Assembly: GCA_942491345.1 (NCBI GenBank)
Contig: CALOAN010000021.1
Coordinates: 261,355 to 325,354 of the forward strand
DNA from: an uncultured actinomycete
Lineage (GTDB): Bacteria > Actinomycetota > Acidimicrobiia > Spongiisociales > UBA5794
Length of the DNA: 64,000 bases
Direction of reading: 5' to 3'
Below are positions 43,895-61,847 of the stretch, piece by piece (the stretch's first letter is position 1; the number at the start of each line of letters is the position of its first letter). The translations under genes and the position numbers were made by a program. The notes under the pieces are model-generated. The model had not been told where the DNA came from, searched no databases, and saw nothing but the letters and a program-made list of their open reading frames with translations.

Positions 43895-45233
43895 TCAAGT
43901 CTTGGCGGCCTCGAACCTTCGGAGGGTGATCTCTCGCGCCTCGGCATGGTCGATCATCGGGTAGGGGTAGTCCTCGCCGAGGGTGATACCTGCTGCGGCG
44001 GTCTCGAGCGGACGTTCCCACGGGGCATGGATCCCAGGTCCGTCGAGTGACGCCAATTCCGGGACGTACCTCCGGATGTATGCACCATCCGGATCAAACC
44101 GGCGGCTCTGGGCGACCGGATTCATGATGCGAAAGTAGGGGGCCGCGTCGGCGCCGGTGCCCGCCACCCATTGCCAGTTCCCGACGTTCTGCGACGTGTC
44201 GGCGTCGATCAGGAGGCGCCGGAAGTGGCGTTCGCCGATCCTCCAGTCGATGCCGAGATCCTTGACCAGGAACGAGGCCGTGACCATGCGCACACGCCCG
44301 TGCATCCATCCTTCGGCCACGGAGCTGCCGCATGCCGGCGTCGACCATCGGATAGCCGGTCCTCCCGTCCTTCCACGCACGGACCGCTTCGCCGTCGTCT
44401 TCCCACACGATCGAAGCGAGATCGTCACGGAAGGAGTGGTCGACCGAGTGTGGAGCGTGGAAGAGGACCTGAGCGTAGAAGTCGCGCCAAGCGAGCTGGC
44501 GCACAAACGCCTGCCGACCGTCGGTCGCCGTACCCACGTGTTCGGCGACGGTGCGAGCCGCGACCGTCCCGAACTTCAAATCGGCCGAGAGGTGAGAGGT
44601 CCGGTCGAGGTCCGGCCGATTGCGGTCCGCCTCGTAGCCGTCGACGACCTCGAGGAATCGCTCCAGCCGCTCGCGTGCGCCGACCTCGCCCGGGGCCGCG
44701 ACCGGTGATTCCACGGGAGGGAGTTCGATACCACCGTGTGCGATGATCGTGGCCTGGCCTGCCTGTGGCCACGGTTCGACCGGTGTCTTGCTCCAGGAGC
44801 GGTAGTACGGGGTGAACACCCGGTACGGCGTGCCGCCGCCCGTCATCACCGTTTCCGGTGCTCGTACAACGTTGCCGTCGTACGTTTCGATTGGCGGTCC
44901 AGTTCCTGCGGCGACATCGGCGTCACGCCGTTGGGAGAACGGCGTGTAGTCGCGATTCCAGTACACCGCGTCATGCCGGCGGGCGACGGCGGGGACCACC
45001 AGTTCCGGGTCGCCGGTCTCCACCGTGAGGCTGCCGCCCAGGCGCCGGAGTTCCGCGTCGAGCGCGTGGAGATGGGCGAACAGCAGATCTCGCCGAAGAT
45101 CGCCTGCGGTGGCGAGCAGGCGCCGGTCGAGGACGAACAGTGCCGCCACTTCATCGTGGTCGAGAGTTGCGGCAGCCCACGCCGGATTGTCCGCAAGGCG
45201 GAGATCCCGCCGGAACCAGACCAGCGAACTCAC
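43895..45233 (-). pseudogene. phr: Deoxyribodipyrimidine photolyase, reading frame broken by a +1-nt shift near 44312-44322
   Basis: The N-terminal frame reads VWFRRDLRLADNPAW...GYPMVDAGMRQL. The conserved continuation GWMHGRVRMVTASFLVKDL...NWQWVAGTGADAAPYFRIMNP is in another frame (ORF 43895-44506). Total length is 1 mod 3. GTG start overlaps the upstream stop (GTGA at 45230-45233). Confidence 0.8.
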
Positions 45234-46714
45234 TCGAGGCCGTCTTCGACCACCGGAGCCGCAGAAGATATGCGGTCCCTGAGTTCGGCCGTCGCAGCAA
45301 TCCGGCGGGCCATGTTCCCAAAGATGAACGCATGGAAGGGGAGGAGTGCATACCAGTAGAGGCGACCGCTGAGTCCCCGCGGCCGGAAATAGGCGTTCTG
45401 GTGAAGCACGGTGACGTCGCCGCTGCGCTCTGTGCTCCATTCCAGCCACGCATCGCCCGGAAGCCGCATCTCAGCAGAGAGTTGGAGCCAGCGGCCTGGT
45501 TCGACGGCGGTGACGCGCCAGAAGTCGACGGTGTCCTCGAGGCGGACGTCTTCCGGATGGCGGCGTCCACGCCGGAGCCCGACGCCGCCCATGACGATAT
45601 CGAGGATCCCCCGCAGCCTCCACGCCCAATCGAAGCCGTGGTAGCCGACGTCTCCGCCAATCCGTGCGAACGACCAGAACACATCCGCGGGGTCTGCTGT
45701 TGTTGTTGCGGTCTGGTGATCCACGAACAAGCTTCCACCGCTCCAGGATGGGTCTCCTTCGAATCGTTGGGCTGGGCCCGTTGTTGCATCCGACCACCGG
45801 GTGTCGACGCTGAGATCTGTGCTGTGCTCGAGGGCCCGTTCAATGGCCGTGTCGAGCGGAGTCGGCCCGATGCCGAATTGGACGTGTGCCGCGTCGCGCG
45901 AACGACGACCTCGTTCTTGAGCGAGTCGACCAGGGGCCGGGCAACTCCAACGGGGAGCGGGGTCACGAGTCCGATCCAGAGTGACGAAAGGCGCGGGGTG
46001 AGCACGGGAACCGGAACGACGAATCGGACGCGGAAGCCCCGCCACCCGCGCATACGCTTGCATCATGTCGAGGTAAGAGAGCACCTCGGGCCCGCCGATC
46101 TCGTACACCGTGTGACCTGGGGTTGTCTCGTTGAGACATGCAATCAGGTAGAGGAGTACGTCGCGAATGGCGATCGGCTGGCATCTGGTCTGGACCCACG
46201 ACGGGGTGACCATGGCCGGCAGCACCTCGGTGAGGTAGCGGAGCATCTCGAACGAAACGGATCCGGATCCGATGATCACCGCCGCACGTAGTTCAGTGAC
46301 GGGAACCGGTCCTGAAGCGAGGGCTCGGCCAACTTCGTGCCGGCTGCCGAGATGTGTGGAAAGGCGGTCGTCCTCGTCACCAAGCCCTCCGAGGTAGACG
46401 ATGCGTTCCACACCGGATTCCGCTGCCGCTTCGGCGAAGTTGGTTGCGGCGATCCGGTCTGTGTCCCGGAAGCTGTCGGCGCTGCCCATCGAATGGATGA
46501 GGTAGTAGGCGACATCGCATCCGGCGAGAGCATCGACCAGAGTGTCGGGCTGGAGGACGTCTGCCGTCACCGCTTCAACATCGTCGCTCCACGAGCGACC
46601 GGCGAGCTTCGCCGGGTTGCGAACTGGACAGACAACTTCGTGTCCCTCGGCAAGCAGCCGCGGGACAAGCCTGCCTCCGATGTATCCGGTTGCGCCCGTG
46701 ACGGCGATTCTCAT
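45230..46714 (-). CDS. NAD(P)-binding SDR/NmrA-like domain fused to DUF2867; contains an internal compensated double frameshift
   Basis: MRIAVTGATGYIGGRLVPRLL.... The ORF stays open, but the family-typical RFVVPVPVLTPRLSSLWIGLVTPLPVGVARPLVDSLKNEVVV (45901-46026) is encoded in a different frame. Confidence 0.7.
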   Translation of the reverse strand: MRIAVTGATGYIGGRLVPRLLAEGHEVVCPVRNPAKLAGRSWSDDVEAVTADVLQPDTLVDALAGCDVAYYLIHSMGSADSFRDTDRIAATNFAEAAAESGVERIVYLGGLGDEDDRLSTHLGSRHEVGRALASGPVPVTELRAAVIIGSGSVSFEMLRYLTEVLPAMVTPSWVQTRCQPIAIRDVLLYLIACLNETTPGHTVYEIGGPEVLSYLDMMQAYARVAGLPRPIRRSGSRAHPAPFVTLDRTRDPAPRWSCPAPGRLAQERGRRSRDAAHVQFGIGPTPLDTAIERALEHSTDLSVDTRWSDATTGPAQRFEGDPSWSGGSLFVDHQTATTTADPADVFWSFARIGGDVGYHGFDWAWRLRGILDIVMGGVGLRRGRRHPEDVRLEDTVDFWRVTAVEPGRWLQLSAEMRLPGDAWLEWSTERSGDVTVLHQNAYFRPRGLSGRLYWYALLPFHAFIFGNMARRIAATAELRDRISSAAPVVEDGLE

Positions 46715-46868
46715 GGTGGCCTCTCTTCCGACGGTACTACGAAGCTACGGCACCCGTTGGATCGGCGTGGCACGTCGACGCGTCGTGAGGAAAGTTAACA
46801 CTAAATCTCATCCAGTCGACGTGGCGGTTCCGTACATAGGACAGTCAACCCCAAAAAGGAGGGGCAGA

Positions 46869-47660
46869 ATGAAGAAGCTCATTGCGGTATTCGCCGCAAC
46901 CCTTATGACTCTGGCGATTGCAGCACCCGCAATGGCTCAGAGTGAAACACGTATCCACCTGATTCACGGAATCCCGGATACTCCCGTTGATGTGATCGTA
47001 GATGGAGAAGCGGTGTTCACCGACTTCAACTTCGGCGATACACAAGATCTGTCGTCACTCGCTGGCGCAACGTTGGTCGGCCTCCAGGTCGTCGTCGCCG
47101 GCACCGACACTGTTGCGATTGACGCTGGTGATGTCGATCTTCCTGCTTCGGGCAACTACTCGATCATCGCGAACCTTGACGCTTCGGGCACCCCGACGCT
47201 GACGGTGTTCGAGAATGACACTTCTGCGATCGACGCCGGTAACGGCCGCCTGCAGGTTCGTCACACCGCTGCCGCTCCGGCCGTGGACGTGAAGGCCGAC
47301 GGCGCGGTTGCGTTCAGCAACCTCAGCAACCCGAACGAGGCGAAGGCTGACCTTCCCGCCGCTACCTATAGCGTCGAGGTGGTCCCCACCGGAGCCGATG
47401 AGCCGGTTGTGATTGGCCCAGCCGACATCGCCCTTCCTGACGGCACGTCGCTGATCGTCTACGCAGTTGGTTCGCTCGATGACGAGACGCTGACCGTGTT
47501 GACCGAGTCGATCACCGGTCTTGGCGCCGCTCCTGCGGCCGTCGAAACCGGGAACAGCCCTGTTGAAAGCGGCATCTCGATGACCGCTGTCGCCGGCATG
47601 CTGGTGATCGCAACCGTTGCAGTTGGCGGAGGTCTCACCCTCGCCCGCCGCTCGAGCTGA
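46869..47660 (+). CDS. Secreted DUF4397 protein with C-terminal sortase-type sorting signal (AVETG + TM + RRSS)
   Basis: AAGGAGGGG RBS. Signal peptide ...APAMAQS. Repeated DUF4397-type beta modules. The C-terminus is PAAVETGNSPVESG-ISMTAVAGMLVIATVAVGGGLTLA-RRSS. Confidence 0.75.
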   Translation: MKKLIAVFAATLMTLAIAAPAMAQSETRIHLIHGIPDTPVDVIVDGEAVFTDFNFGDTQDLSSLAGATLVGLQVVVAGTDTVAIDAGDVDLPASGNYSIIANLDASGTPTLTVFENDTSAIDAGNGRLQVRHTAAAPAVDVKADGAVAFSNLSNPNEAKADLPAATYSVEVVPTGADEPVVIGPADIALPDGTSLIVYAVGSLDDETLTVLTESITGLGAAPAAVETGNSPVESGISMTAVAGMLVIATVAVGGGLTLARRSS

Positions 47661-47684
47661 CGACAAAACGACGAACGAAGGAGA

Positions 47685-47715
47685 ATGGGGGCGGGACACA
47701 GCGTCCCGCCCCCAT
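47685..47715 (+). promoter_or_regulatory. Strong hairpin between the substrate and sortase genes (possible partial terminator/processing site)
   Basis: ATGGGGGCGGGAC-acagc-GTCCCGCCCCCAT (13-bp stem), weak U tail (tcgaatg). Confidence 0.5.
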
Positions 47716-47729
47716 TCGAATGTGAAACC

Positions 47730-48428
47730 ATGAAACTCCCAGCCGCCATCGTTCTCCTGCTCCTTGCCCTGGTTGGCGCCGCCTGTAGTTCGGCTTCCGC
47801 CGACCCAGTCGGCGAGGCCCCCGCAACCACAACCACTATCGCCTCACCCGTCACTACAACGACGGTGGCGCCTGAAGAGGAACAATCGCCCGCCACCTCG
47901 ACCCGCTCGACGTCCACACTCGCCGATGCGGTGGTGCCGCTGGAGTCGGCCCTCTACGACCCGGCGGAACATGCGGACGACCGTCCGATCCCGACCTCCA
48001 TTTCGATCGAAGGCATCGGTGTTGCCGGAGCGCCCGTGATCGATGTGGGTGTCGAAGAGAACGGCGACATGGAGATCCCCGGCGCCGACAGCGTCGGCTG
48101 GTACCGCTTCAACCCAACACCCGGCGAGCCCGGGTCCTCCGTCCTTGCGGCACACATCTCGTACAACGGCGAACCCGGCGTCTTTCGATACCTCGACGAC
48201 GTCGAAATCGGCGAACGTGTTGTGGTGACGTTCGACGACGGCACATCGACTGAGTTTGAGATCATCGAGCTTGCGCAATATGACAAGCAGGAGCTTCCGG
48301 ACGATCGAGTCTTTGCGAAAGACGGTGACCCGGTCCTCACGTTGATCACGTGTGGAGGCGACTTCAATCGTTCGCTGCGCAGTTACGAAGACAACGTCGT
48401 GGCCTACGCTGTACCCGTCGCCGGCTAG
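47730..48428 (+). CDS. Sortase (class E/F-like), lipobox-type signal
   Basis: LVGAAC signal. Catalytic AAHISYNG...F..L and TLITCGG motifs plus a downstream Arg (RSLRSY). Confidence 0.85.
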   Translation: MKLPAAIVLLLLALVGAACSSASADPVGEAPATTTTIASPVTTTTVAPEEEQSPATSTRSTSTLADAVVPLESALYDPAEHADDRPIPTSISIEGIGVAGAPVIDVGVEENGDMEIPGADSVGWYRFNPTPGEPGSSVLAAHISYNGEPGVFRYLDDVEIGERVVVTFDDGTSTEFEIIELAQYDKQELPDDRVFAKDGDPVLTLITCGGDFNRSLRSYEDNVVAYAVPVAG

Positions 48429-55055: not shown

Positions 55056-55115
55056 CCGCGTACCCAGGGTTGTAGACGTCCTATTTGGCGTCTCCAGCCC
55101 GCGGAACGCGAGCCG

Positions 55116-55346
55116 CCATTCCGCGGGCCCACAGCGCCGTATGCGGGGTGGAGAACCCTGGGTACGCAGCGCCACCCATTCCGCGGGCCCACGGCGCCGT
55201 ATGCGGGGTGGAGAACCCTGGGTTCGTGATCAGCCATTCCGCGGGCTGACGGCGCCGTATGCGGGGTGGAGAACCCTGGGTTCGCAGCGCCACCCATTCC
55301 GCGGGCCCACGGCGCCGTATGCGGGGTGGAGAACCCTGGGTTCGTG
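55116..55346 (+). repeat. 60-nt tandem repeat, 4 units (family shared with 7734-7853)
   Basis: Units start at 55116, 55176, 55234 and 55294. The array lies about 100 nt upstream of the heliorhodopsin ATG. Confidence 0.85.
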
Positions 55347-55448: not shown

Positions 55449-56213
55449 ATGGTCTCAAAAGTTGAAGTAACCGACGCTGACTTCAGTCGACTCAGAACGT
55501 ACAACTGGGTGATGGGCGGCCTGCATCTTCTCCAGGCAGTCTTGGTCCTGGTGCTGGCAACCGACTTCACGCTGCCGGTGACCGGAACGTTCCCTGAGGG
55601 ACCCCCCGGCAGCCCCTCGGAGACGGTCACGCTGTTCGAGCTCTCGATCGCCTGGGGCGTCGCCGCCTTCTTGTTCCTCTCGGCGCTGTTCCATTTCATC
55701 GTGGCGAGTGTTGGGGCGGGCCGCTACCGCGACCAGTTGTCCCGTGGACAGAACCAGTTCCGATGGATCGAATACTCGCTGTCGTCATCGATCATGATTG
55801 TTCTCATCGCGATGCTGACGGGGATCTCCGGTATCGCCGCCATCCTTGCTCTGTTCGGGGTCAACGCCGGCATGATCTTCTTCGGATCCGTCCAGGAACG
55901 GTATGAGGCCCCCGGTGGCTCCTTGTGGCCATTCTGGCTCGGTGTGGTCCTCGGCGTGGTGCCGTGGATCGCCATCGGTATCTATCTGGTGTCCCCCGGA
56001 AGTGATGCACAGCCTCCTGGGTTCGTCTACGGAATCTTCTTCTCGTTGTTCGTGTTCTTCAACACCTTCGCTATCAACCAGTGGCTGCAGTACAAGGAGG
56101 TGGGGCGCTGGCGCAACTATCTGACCGGCGAACGCACCTACATCCTCTTGAGCCTCCTGGCGAAGAGTCTCCTTGCCTGGCAGGTCTTTGCGGGAACCCT
56201 CGCAGGGACGTAG
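55449..56213 (+). CDS. Heliorhodopsin
   Basis: Collinear with heliorhodopsin 48C12 as I remember it: GGLHLLQ, LSALFHFIV, NQFRWIEYSLSSSIMIVLIA (counterion Glu), FVYGIFFSLFVFFN, SLLAKSLLAWQVFAGTL (Schiff-base Lys). Confidence 0.9.
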   Translation: MVSKVEVTDADFSRLRTYNWVMGGLHLLQAVLVLVLATDFTLPVTGTFPEGPPGSPSETVTLFELSIAWGVAAFLFLSALFHFIVASVGAGRYRDQLSRGQNQFRWIEYSLSSSIMIVLIAMLTGISGIAAILALFGVNAGMIFFGSVQERYEAPGGSLWPFWLGVVLGVVPWIAIGIYLVSPGSDAQPPGFVYGIFFSLFVFFNTFAINQWLQYKEVGRWRNYLTGERTYILLSLLAKSLLAWQVFAGTLAGT

Positions 56214-56345: not shown

Positions 56346-57416
56346 TTAGCTCGCCGGAACGAGCACTGCGTCGATGACGTGGATGACGCCGTTGCTGGCC
56401 AGCACGTCGGCCGTGACGACGGTTGCCACGTCGTTGATCACGACACTTCCGTCGACCACTGCGATCGCCACGGTGTTCTCCTCGTAGAGCGTGGGGACGT
56501 CCGCAGGAGCGATCTCGATGACGTCGGCGGCCAGGAACTCGCCGCTCACCACGTGGTACAACAGGATGTTGGCCAGGTCGGGATTGGCAAGGAGCTCTTC
56601 GGCGGTCACACCGAGTTCTTCGAGCAGTGCTGCGAAGGCTTCGTCAGTGGGAGCGAAGACCGTGAACGGACCTTCGCCGTTGAGCGCGTCAACCAAACCG
56701 GCGGTCTCGAGTGCTGCGAGGAGCACAGTGAACTGTGCCGGGTCGCCGGCGGCCGCTTCGACGACGGTCTCGGAGATCGTCAGCTCCATGGCCTCGGTGG
56801 TCGTGGTCATTGCTTCGGTTGTGGTGGTGGTCTCTTCTTCCATAGGTTCTTCGGCCATGGCTACGCCGAGGGCTTCGGCGATGTCCGGCGGAAGCAGGAC
56901 GCCGTCGATGACGTGCACGATGCCGTTGTCGGCGATGAGGTCGGCAGAGACGACCGTCGCTTCGTTGATCATGATCTGACCGTCGACGACGCTGATGGCG
57001 ACTTCCTGGGGGTTAAGGGTGGCAACAGAGCTGCCATCGAGGGTCGCGACCAACTGCGAGTCGGCCTCCTGGCCCAGTACGTGATAGAGGAGGATCGCCG
57101 TGAGCGTCTCCGTGTCGGCGAGCAGTTCTTCGGCTGTGATGCCGAGCGCCTCGAACGCGGCTTCGAAAGCGGCGTCGGTGGGTGCAAGAACTGTGAACGG
57201 GCCCTCACCCTGCAGGGTCTCGCTGAGACCGGCTGCATCGATGGCCGCAATGAGCGTCGAGAACTGACCGGCTTCAATCGCGAGATCAAGTACCGAAGTG
57301 TCCGCTACGGGTTCCGCCGCGGTCGTTGTGGTTGTATCGTCGCTGTCGCTGCTGCACGCTGCCACGATCATGGCGAAGGCAAGCAGGAGAGCGAAGAACG
57401 AAAGTCGTTTCCTCAT
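56346..57416 (-). CDS. Lipoprotein with two fasciclin (FAS1) domains
   Basis: Lipobox VAAC. The pattern GPFTV(L/F)APTD(A/E)AF...H(V)V/IDGVLLP/IDAVLVP occurs twice. Confidence 0.85.
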   Translation of the reverse strand: MRKRLSFFALLLAFAMIVAACSSDSDDTTTTTAAEPVADTSVLDLAIEAGQFSTLIAAIDAAGLSETLQGEGPFTVLAPTDAAFEAAFEALGITAEELLADTETLTAILLYHVLGQEADSQLVATLDGSSVATLNPQEVAISVVDGQIMINEATVVSADLIADNGIVHVIDGVLLPPDIAEALGVAMAEEPMEEETTTTTEAMTTTTEAMELTISETVVEAAAGDPAQFTVLLAALETAGLVDALNGEGPFTVFAPTDEAFAALLEELGVTAEELLANPDLANILLYHVVSGEFLAADVIEIAPADVPTLYEENTVAIAVVDGSVVINDVATVVTADVLASNGVIHVIDAVLVPAS

Positions 57417-57437
57417 GAAATTGATGTCCTTTCAGAC

Positions 57438-57449
57438 TTACTAATAAAT
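57438..57449. promoter_or_regulatory. AT-rich box 1 (TTACTAATAAAT) in a divergent promoter region
   Basis: Near-identical copy at 57566-57577. A TCTGCActcTGCAGA inverted repeat is adjacent (57450-57464). Confidence 0.3.
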
Positions 57450-57565
57450 CTGCACTCTGCAGACATCGGATATACGAAGCAGGTGTCGCGGTTGGATGAC
57501 GGGAGACTCGATTCTTGACCGTTCTCGCCAGAAGGTGTTTCTCGTGACGGGCCCAACCTGCTATC

Positions 57566-57577
57566 TTACTACTAAAT
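57566..57577. promoter_or_regulatory. AT-rich box 2 (TTACTACTAAAT) abutting the regulator start
   Basis: 11/12 identity with box 1. Such AT-rich 12-mers are rare in this GC-rich sequence. Confidence 0.3.
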
Positions 57578-57579
57578 GG

Positions 57580-58407
57580 ATGACACGAAACCCGAAGAAG
57601 CTGAGCCTGCACGAGGTCGCCGAGATCCTCGACGTGCACTACATGACCGCGTACCGGTATGTCCGGTTGGGAATCCTCCCTGCGCGACGCGAAGGTCGGA
57701 GCTGGCGAATTCATCGCGACGACCTCGATGAGTATCTCTCGAAGGATGAGCCCCGCACGCAACGGGGTGAGGCCGACTGGGGCGACCGCTTCTTCAATCG
57801 AGTCCTCGCCGCCGACGAGGCAGGGGCGTGGGGGGTTGTCGAAGCGGCGCTCAGCTCCGGGATGACGATTCCCGAGGCGTATCCCACCCTGCTCGCTCCG
57901 ACGATGCGTCGTATCGGCGAGCTGTGGGCGACCGGCGAGGTCGATATCGCGAACGAGCACGCCGCCTCAGAGGTGGTATCGAGGATCGTCGCGAGACTCG
58001 GACCGCGTCTGGCACGTCGCGGGGTTCGGCGGGGTACCGTGGTGCTCGGTTCGACGGCGACCGAACTCCATTCGCTTCCGCTTGCCATGGCGACAGATCT
58101 CTTCCGAGCCGCGCAGTTCGAGGTCGTGGACCTCGGCGCCTATCTTCCGCCCAAGTCTTTCGCTGCATTTGTTGCCGACATAGATGACCTTGTTGCCGTC
58201 GGAGTCGGCGTGACCATGCCCGGTCAGGCGGACGAAATCCGCAAAACGCTCGTCGCCATCCGTAACGTCACCGACGTCCCGATTGTCATCGGCGGTGGCG
58301 GGGTTGATGAGGCAGCCGCACTCGAGCTCGGTGCCGACGGGTGGGCTCAAACCGGAGACGAGGCAGTTGAGCTGGTGGAGGCGTTGCTCGAGCCCTTCAA
58401 AGCCTGA
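57580..58407 (+). CDS. CarH/LitR-like B12-binding photoreceptor-regulator with excisionase-type HTH
   Basis: N-terminus LSLHEVAEILDVHYMTAYRYVRLGILPARREGRSWRI (HTH_17-like). Helical bundle with W-x9-EH (WATGEVDIANEH). Rossmann B12 domain LGSTATELHSLPL...VGVGVTM...IVIGGGG. Confidence 0.8.
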   Translation: MTRNPKKLSLHEVAEILDVHYMTAYRYVRLGILPARREGRSWRIHRDDLDEYLSKDEPRTQRGEADWGDRFFNRVLAADEAGAWGVVEAALSSGMTIPEAYPTLLAPTMRRIGELWATGEVDIANEHAASEVVSRIVARLGPRLARRGVRRGTVVLGSTATELHSLPLAMATDLFRAAQFEVVDLGAYLPPKSFAAFVADIDDLVAVGVGVTMPGQADEIRKTLVAIRNVTDVPIVIGGGGVDEAAALELGADGWAQTGDEAVELVEALLEPFKA

Positions 58408-61742: not shown

Positions 61743-61847
61743 GACGCTAGGAGTACGGACCACATCGGGAATGCGGATGACCGGTCATCCGGATGCCGGG
61801 CGAGATCCGAAGATGGGGTATCACCAACCGAGATCTGAAAGGCCACC

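Follow-up and report, generated by a model that had tools for sequence, protein, structure and literature searches.

The window analysed here, that is the whole stretch of 64,000 nt taken from contig CALOAN010000021.1 of an uncultured actinomycete of the Acidimicrobiia, harbors at 57580-58407 on the plus strand a regulator gene which, together with its product, is named REG. An intergenic region of 163 nt separates REG from a divergent fasciclin gene, and the REG protein joins a helix-turn-helix (HTH) head of the HTH_17 type to a cobalamin-binding part. The original prediction, made from the sequence of the window, regarded REG as a CarH-like photoreceptor with an unusual DNA-binding head, and proposed two AT-rich 12-mers of the intergenic region as its operator half-sites. 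The features of REG and of the shared region are listed below in window positions, where ECF stands for extracytoplasmic function.

57580..58407, plus strand: REG, HTH_17 + B12-binding_2 + B12-binding (open reading frame and translation, Pfam, homologous clusters, AlphaFold)
57601..57744, plus strand: HTH_17 / excisionase-type winged-helix DNA-binding head, residues 8-55 (Pfam PF12728, E 1.6e-14)
57784..57999, plus strand: B12-binding_2 four-helix bundle, residues 69-140 (Pfam PF02607, 3e-14)
W at 57925-57927 and E126-H127 at 57955-57960, plus strand: W-x9-EH cap over the upper cobalamin ligand, with G113xxW116
58036..58371, plus strand: B12-binding Rossmann domain, residues 153-264 (Pfam PF02310, 4.5e-12)
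58069-58071, plus strand: putative lower axial ligand H164 in T-E-L-H-S-L-P, plus G186xxxP190 (invariance)
57437..57449, plus strand: box 1, CTTACTAATAAAT, putative operator in the fasciclin 5' leader (same-genus conservation as GACTTAYTRMTAAATC)
57449..57463, no strand assigned: inverted repeat TCTGCA-ctc-TGCAGA beside box 1, hairpin or second protein site (compensatory change)
57471..57500, minus strand: fasciclin ECF-type promoter, -35 GTCATCC (57500-57494), 17-nt spacer, -10 CGTATA (57476-57471) (pattern scan)
57565..57577, plus strand: box 2, CTTACTACTAAAT, putative autoregulatory operator (same-genus conservation as TATCTT[AC][CT]T[AG]CTAAATG)

Domain architecture and signature residues of REG

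The head of REG scored 54.3 bits with the Pfam model HTH_17 (PF12728; cut-off 27) and 44 bits with the NCBIfam model 'excise' (TIGR01764; cut-off 28.8), and none of the MerR models in Pfam matched REG at E <= 0.01, in agreement with the excisionase-type reading that had been given to the N-terminus, where the stretch LSLHEVAEILDVHYMTAYRYVRLG is present as described. In the Foldseek comparison the fold of this head is a winged helix related to the MerR type. The W-x9-EH motif that had been pointed out was likewise recovered (W116-ATGEVDIAN-E126-H127), as was ELHSLPL in the place of the His-ligand motif, with E162-L-H164-S-L-P167 standing where ExHxxG would be expected. Strict conservation was observed in an alignment of 22 REG relatives with identities of 40-90%, in which G113, W116, E126, H127, H164, G186 and P190 are invariant, together with V19-H-Y-M-T23, Y25, R26, R29 and G31 of the HTH core. 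Proteins with the same three domains form more than 1397 homologous clusters in a metagenome-scale database, nearly all from uncultured Acidimicrobiia, and relatives are encoded in at least 593 GTDB species genomes; the JGI labels read 'excisionase family DNA binding protein' for some members of the family and 'light-induced transcriptional regulator' for a few.

ExHxxG, to which the original prediction referred, does not define light-responsive cobalamin-binding domains, whose published signature consists of GxxW, EH, GxxH and GxxxP (PMC11796333). GxxW, EH and GxxxP are found in REG as G113-E-L-W116, E126-H127 and G186-A-Y-L-P190. The place of GxxH reads T161-E-L-H164, with T throughout the clade of the window, and distant family members keep the G (PPGERH, ATGEQH); because the contact at this G is made in CtMerR by a main-chain carbonyl (PMC11796333), a Thr at the position may be tolerated. 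As to ExHxxG, E162-x-H164 is present and the G position is taken by P167 in REG and varies between P, A, G and S among family members.

The AlphaFold model of REG (pLDDT 91.1, pTM 0.74) found its best Foldseek matches entirely among photoreceptors, namely the photocobilin SasPcob (8J2W), full-length TtCarH and the CtMerR domain, with 8J2W, 8JBS and 5C8x at the top. SasPcob aligned over 204 columns with a root-mean-square deviation of 1.7-1.9 A (TMq 0.68), full-length TtCarH aligned over 284-294 columns with the head included, and the methyltransferase corrinoid protein MttC reached a TMq of only 0.40. These observations support the view that, in architecture and in its invariant signature residues, REG corresponds to a light-responsive cobalamin-binding domain, here carried on an HTH_17 head and not on a MerR head. 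The proposal of a photoreceptor-regulator variant holds as far as architecture and signature residues are concerned; light sensing itself we infer.

CarH and the class I LitR proteins of Myxococcus xanthus, Thermus thermophilus, Bacillus megaterium and Streptomyces are photoreceptor-repressors of the MerR type that use adenosylcobalamin (AdoCbl), and REG resembles them in its N-terminal winged-helix head, its four-helix bundle with W-x9-EH, its Rossmann B12 domain and its lower-ligand His, and also in a DNA box, described below, that is placed as for a repressor at a promoter. REG nevertheless falls outside CarH/LitR on the MerR head, the equivalog score, the direct-repeat operator and His132. 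Its head is of the HTH_17/excisionase type and matches no MerR model; with the NCBIfam model NF052513 (TransRegCarH) it reached 44.3 bits, far below the cut-off of 400, and the aligned part was the cobalamin-binding part only. The CarH operator consists of tandem 11-bp direct repeats, three in number, whereas for REG the putative operator is a palindrome of 12 bp that frequently occurs as a tandem pair. Moreover, W116 is followed by A117 where TtCarH has His132, and the G of ExHxxG has given way to P167.

In both sequence and structure, the cobalamin-binding domain of REG is matched best by the photocobilins SasPcob and AbDPcob (8J2W, 8J2Y), the latter from an Acidimicrobiaceae bacterium, and CtMerR (8JBS), all with an experimentally shown light response (PMC10979010, PMC11796333). 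REG, the photocobilins and CtMerR have in common GxxW, EH, the lower His and GxxxP, and all are without the bis-His residue of TtCarH. They differ in that the photocobilins lack a DNA-binding head and have a biliverdin-binding globin, to which a GGDEF output may be added, that CtMerR has a MerR head, and that REG has T at the G of GxxH. Related architectures have been described in silico, as the 'HTH-CBD' clusters of the SignatureFinder network, which combine cobalamin-binding domains with a non-MerR HTH and are regarded as putative green-light photoreceptors (PMC11796333), and in a photoglobin survey where HTH_17 appears as one of the outputs joined to modules of B12-binding plus photoglobin (PMC8717448), from which REG differs by having no photoglobin domain. 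The architecture had thus already been noted in silico, and no description of the operator, the regulon or the biochemistry of the REG family was found in the literature search.

Alternatively, REG might sense cobalamin supply or redox state and not light, in the manner of a nutritional regulator or of AerR, a hydroxocobalamin-binding protein. Several observations weigh in this direction and against a light sensor: by sequence score alone the REG domain is about equally near to methyltransferase corrinoid proteins and to photoreceptors such as CarH, the equivalent of TtCarH His132, which is needed for the bis-His light state, is missing along with the G of GxxH, and a search of this 86%-complete assembly found no adenosyltransferase of the PduO or CobA type (PF01923, PF02572), the PduO type being likewise missing from 4 of 12 REG-carrying genomes. 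It was found in the other 8 and in all three same-genus REG genomes tested, and one cobalamin riboswitch is present in the genome studied here. The missing His132 equivalent is shared by the photocobilins and CtMerR, which are light-responsive all the same (PMC11796333), and W-x9-EH and GxxxP are invariant in a family whose structure matches favor photoreceptors. Genes for B12 uptake or B12-dependent enzymes were seen neither in the conserved neighborhood of REG nor beside its candidate boxes, and the candidate targets, a sigma factor with a set of photolyase, CFA-synthase and fasciclin genes, are typical of photo-oxidative stress. We therefore consider sensing of cobalamin or redox state quite improbable, and a light-responsive REG is preferred.

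The intergenic boxes and the family-wide palindrome

With a GC content of 47.9% (63.5% in the window), the intergenic region belongs to the lowest 0.06% of 163-nt segments, and its AT-richness, the 12-mers of box 1 (TTACTAATAAAT, 57438-57449) and box 2 (TTACTACTAAAT, 57566-57577, 2 nt before ATG 57580) and the inverted repeat were all located where the original prediction had placed them. A direct repeat matching at 11 of 12 positions arises in 16 of 1000 shuffles of the region, which is of modest significance alone, and the pair is convincing because it is conserved in orthologues and not on repeat statistics alone. In the intergenic alignment of five same-genus orthologues, both boxes form sharply bounded conserved blocks, while the remaining spacer varies in sequence and length; the blocks comprise box 1 with the inverted repeat, TACGAAGCAG...GGATGAC, and TATCTT(A/C)(C/T)T(A/G)CTAAATG, which holds box 2. 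The literal TTACTANTAAAT occurs nowhere else in the 4.1-Mb genome beyond the two known sites, and with one mismatch 7 matches were obtained against 11 in the reversed control, most of them on an AT-rich island of contig C48. The suggested genome-wide search for the literal 12-mer accordingly brought no further sites, and the consensus box found the promoter of a sigma operon instead.

At the same position, orthologues of other genera have TTTAGT(A/G)CTAAAT, which is nearly a perfect palindrome and often present twice. The family box is a palindrome of 12-13 bp, TTTAGYRCTAAA(T), of the form TTTAGT.ACTAAA(T), which was observed upstream of orthologues down to 40% identity and upstream of nearly all of 19 orthologues from related genomes, and in distant orthologues the consensus box stands directly before the start codon (GTTTGGTGCTAAATG in L038; TTTAGTGATAAATG in L043 and L044). 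Tandem boxes are frequent, 15-34 bp apart, a spacing that hints at a dimer of dimers; CarH is a tetramer in the dark, dependent on AdoCbl and taken apart by light. REG was found in 20 of 61 related genomes and the exact TTTAGYRCTAAA in 15 of the 61, with 1-3 sites each and 0 for the reversed control; 14 of these 15 genomes carry REG. In 80 further species genomes, the core TTAGYRMTAA was found at 37 REG loci against 2 for the reversed control, and 23 loci have it no more than 450 nt upstream of REG. The half-sites of CIRCE (TTAGCACT/AGTGCTAA) resemble the REG box; CIRCE/HrcA was rejected as an explanation, as the box has no 9-nt spacer and sits at light-related genes. A literature search for the box sequence, or for CarH/LitR in Acidimicrobiia, yielded nothing relevant.

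We infer REG as the binder of the box, in preference to any other protein, from co-occurrence and adjacency only, which counts against the assignment. A different factor, such as a WhiB-like protein or the ECF system itself, might bind the box, and REG would then be a member of the regulon with another DNA target. Boxes do lie in the promoter regions of WhiB-like genes (G058:C48:18737, G047:C3:43583), and one genome with the box, G048, is without a detected REG; the assembly of G048 is 84% complete, however, and a contig ends 97 nt from its box. All the other box genomes encode REG, the invariant HTH core goes in step with the invariant box, and the AT-rich palindrome is unlike ECF-type promoters and sits downstream of -10 elements of the sigma-70 type, so that a binder other than REG appears very unlikely. 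WhiB-like genes also stand divergent from REG in L042, L047 and L048, which suggests that they are a further regulon member in some lineages.

Compared with the family palindrome, boxes 1 and 2 keep the right half-site (A/G)(A/C)TAAAT including the trailing T, with CTTACT instead of TTTAGT in the left half; by this sequence comparison, they are degenerate copies of the family-wide box and probably low-affinity operators. Two position weight matrices (PWMs) were used, an all-sites PWM that includes the genus of the window and an out-of-genus PWM that excludes it and so avoids circularity. Box 1 scored 22.6 bits with the all-sites PWM and 12.2 bits, rank 39 genome-wide, with the out-of-genus PWM, whereas box 2 scored 23.3 bits with the former and took ranks 16 (reverse strand, 16.0 bits) and 25 (13.4 bits) genome-wide with the latter. 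Most of the spurious PWM matches are gathered by the AT-rich stretch C48:70000-93000, which may be a horizontally acquired island, for instance with surface polysaccharide genes; other matches on C33 and C11 were dropped, as they lie in coding or in low-GC, foreign-looking DNA.

The layout of the two boxes differs. Box 1 occupies the leader, 22-34 nt past the -10 of the fasciclin ECF promoter, whose -35 and -10 are conserved in the same-genus orthologues, unlike the stretch between this promoter and box 2; the fasciclin gene has its own ECF-type promoter, and the shared region is not the single divergent promoter first supposed. Box 2 spans from the 3' end of a TANNNT -10 (TATCTT, 57562-57567) to the orthologue start codon ATG 57576. 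A sigma-70 promoter scan of 57300-57700 gave no match, and CTAAAT of box 2 was rejected as a -10, since the orthologue start codon overlaps it and TATCTT fits TANNNT. From this layout, with the -10 running into the orthologue start codon, the REG mRNA is probably leaderless, and autorepression would follow. Transcription is predicted to start at about 57574-57576 for REG and at about 57464-57466 for the fasciclin gene. The REG frame extends over 57496-58407, and the in-frame ATG 57580 gives 275 amino acids as assembled, with the N-terminus MTRNPKKLSLHE. The orthologues start at the equivalent of ATG 57576, inside ..CTAAATG, with an N-terminus M(D/E)xxEP(D/E)ELSLHE, and an orthologue-like N-terminus for REG would be MDDTKPEELSLHEV; one extra base in GAAGAAG (57598-57604), probably an assembly error, breaks the orthologue frame, and ATG 57580 rescues it.

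The inverted repeat beside box 1 exhibits a compensatory change, being TCTGCA/TGCAGA in the window and G012 and TCCGCA/TGCGGA in G017 and G003; in G006 and G007 one pair becomes G-T, a wobble only in plus-strand RNA. In the minus-strand scan the repeat resembles a weak terminator, with a T-rich tract behind the hairpin. It may fold into a hairpin where the fasciclin mRNA is predicted to begin, or be a second site for a protein.

A more restricted explanation keeps REG as a photoreceptor-repressor with operators only at the sigma promoter described below, and makes boxes 1 and 2 ordinary promoter and leader sequence whose likeness to the palindrome is coincidental in AT-rich DNA. Box 2 could then be only core-promoter or start-site sequence, as the leaderless -10-to-start region, and box 1 only the U-rich tract at the tail of the leader hairpin. 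The out-of-genus scores of 12-16 bits, weak in comparison with the family consensus and within the noise range of AT-rich islands, the recurrence of the 11/12 repeat in 1.6% of shuffles, the terminator-like hairpin with its T-rich tract, and the orthologue start codon inside box 2, where coding or promoter constraint alone would conserve the box, all count in its favor and against operators in the intergenic region. It does not fit as well with the five same-genus orthologues, which keep both boxes as bounded blocks within a variable spacer, with the right half-site and trailing T retained in both boxes, or with the clear consensus box at the equivalent place in L038 and L043/L044, and we judge it unlikely. 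In the preferred reading, in which both boxes are putative operators, autoregulation and control of the fasciclin gene by REG are plausible, as the boxes match the family box beside REG, though with weak out-of-genus scores. The 12-mers thus kept their proposed role as candidate operators through conservation and the match to the family box, and lost that of half-sites or CarH-like direct repeats, each being a weakened copy of the palindrome.

The sigma operon and the ECF-type promoters

With the out-of-genus PWM, the top box lies at C21:325418-325430, 64 nt past the end of the window, with 26.1 bits against 18.5 for the next unrelated match, and a weaker second box is located 15 nt upstream of it. 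The two boxes stand directly after a promoter of the sigma-70 type, TTGACT-16-TATATT (10/12 matches; fragment C21:325380-325440, CATCACTAAGtcATTTAGCACTAAA), and a box that overlaps or follows the -10 is in the classical position of a repressor. This promoter precedes the following operon:

C21:325380-326500 (window end +26 to about +1150; locus L049 2379-3782): SigK-like ECF sigma gene and putative anti-sigma gene

The operon is 6.5 kb from REG in this genome. Boxes ahead of ECF sigma genes were also observed in G053, G059, G017, G012, G027 and G031, and in G027 and G031 the ECF sigma gene is divergent from REG. The top NCBIfam model for the sigma factor is SigK (137 bits against a cut-off of 226), and among PDB sequences this factor is closest to M. 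tuberculosis SigK (4NQW, 2e-19) and then to R. sphaeroides RpoE (1.5e-15), while for the anti-sigma factor no PDB match, RskA included, was detected. An ECF sigma factor gene as target resembles Streptomyces LitR-LitS (PMC11519972).

A shared ECF-type promoter, GTCATCC-N17-CGTA including variants, precedes five units in the pattern scan, and three strict matches lie within about 15 kb, against 64 in the 8.2 Mb of two-strand genome sequence. The units, their promoters and a syntenic neighbor are as follows:

56346..57416, minus strand: lipoprotein with two fasciclin (FAS1) domains (Pfam Fasciclin 3e-64, two stretches)
61752..61813, no strand assigned: back-to-back ECF-type promoters (pattern scan; gene identities by Pfam)
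GTCATCC(61781-61775)-N17-CGTACT(61757-61752), minus strand: amine-oxidase/DUF1365/CFA-synthase promoter
GTCATCC(61784-61790)-N17-CGAAGA(61808-61813), plus strand: SRPBCC-SDR promoter, with a CGAA -10
46736..46836, no strand assigned: second regulated node, with two divergent ECF-type promoters and a box-like site (pattern scan)
CCGATCC-N17-CGTAGT, minus strand: promoter of the NmrA/DUF2867-photolyase operon
CTCATCC(46807-46813)-N17-CGTACA(46831-46836), plus strand: DUF4397-sortase promoter
46794-46806: box-like site GTTAACACTAAAT between those two promoters (rank 13 genome-wide, 16.5 bits with the out-of-genus PWM, not significant alone)
44094-46714, minus strand: NmrA/DUF2867-photolyase operon, divergent from the DUF4397-sortase operon (46869-48428, plus strand)
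55449..56213, plus strand: heliorhodopsin gene, syntenic neighbor in the light island (Pfam PF18761, 2e-99)

The fasciclin unit and the amine-oxidase/DUF1365/CFA-synthase unit each stand behind GTCATCC-N17-CGTA, the promoter type that the SigK-like sigma factor is predicted to use. The fasciclin gene is likely a regulon member; the PDB relatives of its product include MPT70 (1NYO), AstaP (8C18, E 2e-17), which binds astaxanthin, and the R. sphaeroides fasciclin 1W7D, and the lipoprotein may serve in photoprotection by binding carotenoids. DUF1365 is present in 17 of the 61 relatives, and 16 of the 17 have REG, including genomes in which the two genes are unlinked. For the amine oxidase, the likely start codon is ATG 61742 (MRTTSKKIAVIGSG), which follows the -10 CGTACT by 9 nt, and not GTG 61763. 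The divergent -35 elements form a palindrome, GGATGACcgGTCATCC (61775-61790), and in G053 and G057 DUF4397 genes adjoin REG or the boxed sigma gene.

The same-genus loci are syntenic, in the order GNAT, heliorhodopsin, fasciclin, then divergently REG, CFA-synthase, DUF1365, amine oxidase, then divergently SRPBCC and SDR, and the synteny of heliorhodopsin is retained within the genus and in G031. Neither a REG box nor an ECF-type promoter was found upstream of the heliorhodopsin gene, where four tandem units of about 60 nt, resembling repetitive extragenic palindromes, lie at 55100-55340, and no carotenoid genes were seen near REG. In the more distant relatives L039 (G043), L045/L057 (G026) and L046 (G055), a conserved open reading frame of about 65 amino acids sits between the box and REG and appears to form one operon with it; its pattern is Zn-ribbon-like (C-x2-C ... 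C-x-x-H, ..RYN..D.C..H.PV(R/K)(F/Y)PR(L/M)RG.FTEE).

The putative sigma regulon, with CFA-synthase-like, DUF1365, amine oxidase, SDR, photolyase and fasciclin genes, is similar to that of RpoE-ChrR in Rhodobacter (PMC7074977), where the RpoE singlet-oxygen regulon of R. sphaeroides holds cfaS, the photolyase gene phrA, an SDR and the fasciclin RSP_1409 (PMC7074977). It also resembles that of SigK-RskA in Mycobacterium, since mycobacterial SigK controls the fasciclin antigens MPT70/83 in response to a stimulus described as obscure (PMC7509140), and in M. kansasii the MPT70/83 homologues are light-induced (PMC9861118). In both systems the known input acts on the anti-sigma factor, being singlet oxygen for ChrR and 'obscure' for RskA, whereas here a repressor of photoreceptor type appears to gate the transcription of the sigma operon.

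Proposed circuit and its meaning

Taken together, we consider it probable, with some room for doubt, that REG is a cobalamin photoreceptor acting as a dark-state repressor above a photo-oxidative-stress sigma regulon, and also on itself and the fasciclin gene; its chromophore, light sensitivity, oligomeric state, DNA binding and direction of regulation are predicted, and the comparative sequence support for the box and the circuit is strong. In the dark, AdoCbl-loaded REG would oligomerise, probably as a dimer of dimers, and the oligomer would bind TTTAGYRCTAAA(T) boxes that overlap or closely follow the -10/+1 of sigma-70-type promoters. Light from near-UV to green would break the Co-C bond, the oligomer would loosen and the promoters would open. 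The strongest target would be the tandem boxes at the promoter of the SigK-like ECF sigma/anti-sigma operon, while box 2, over REG's own -10 to start codon, would cause autorepression of the probably leaderless mRNA and box 1, a weaker copy, would act in the fasciclin leader. The sigma factor would then most likely drive the fasciclin, amine-oxidase/DUF1365/CFA-synthase, NmrA/DUF2867-photolyase and DUF4397-sortase units, a gene set that, by analogy, matches the classical photo-oxidative-stress regulon.

To our knowledge, the B12-based light-controlled repressors studied so far are the MerR-headed CarH/LitR only. It is possible, and we put this forward tentatively, that REG belongs to a second and widespread class of B12-based photoreceptors acting as transcription factors, encoded in at least 593 species genomes, that has a palindromic operator orthogonal to that of CarH and gives direct light input to a SigK/RskA-type regulon in Actinomycetota. 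If so, the cobalamin light module would have been joined to DNA-binding heads more than once, and the pair of REG and its box would provide a compact green-light repressor and operator, orthogonal to CarH, for photobiology and optogenetics. The MPT70/83-type fasciclins and the amine-oxidase/DUF1365/CFA-synthase operon would be light and photo-oxidative-stress defence in origin, and the fasciclin lipoprotein might be a carotenoid binder like AstaP. The proposed circuit, in which a photoreceptor would act through a SigK-like ECF sigma factor on photolyase, fasciclin and enzymes of lipid modification, would tie together three subjects so far treated apart, the singlet-oxygen regulon of Rhodobacter, the mycobacterial SigK/MPT70/83 regulon and the light response of abundant, uncultured aquatic Acidimicrobiia that bear heliorhodopsin.

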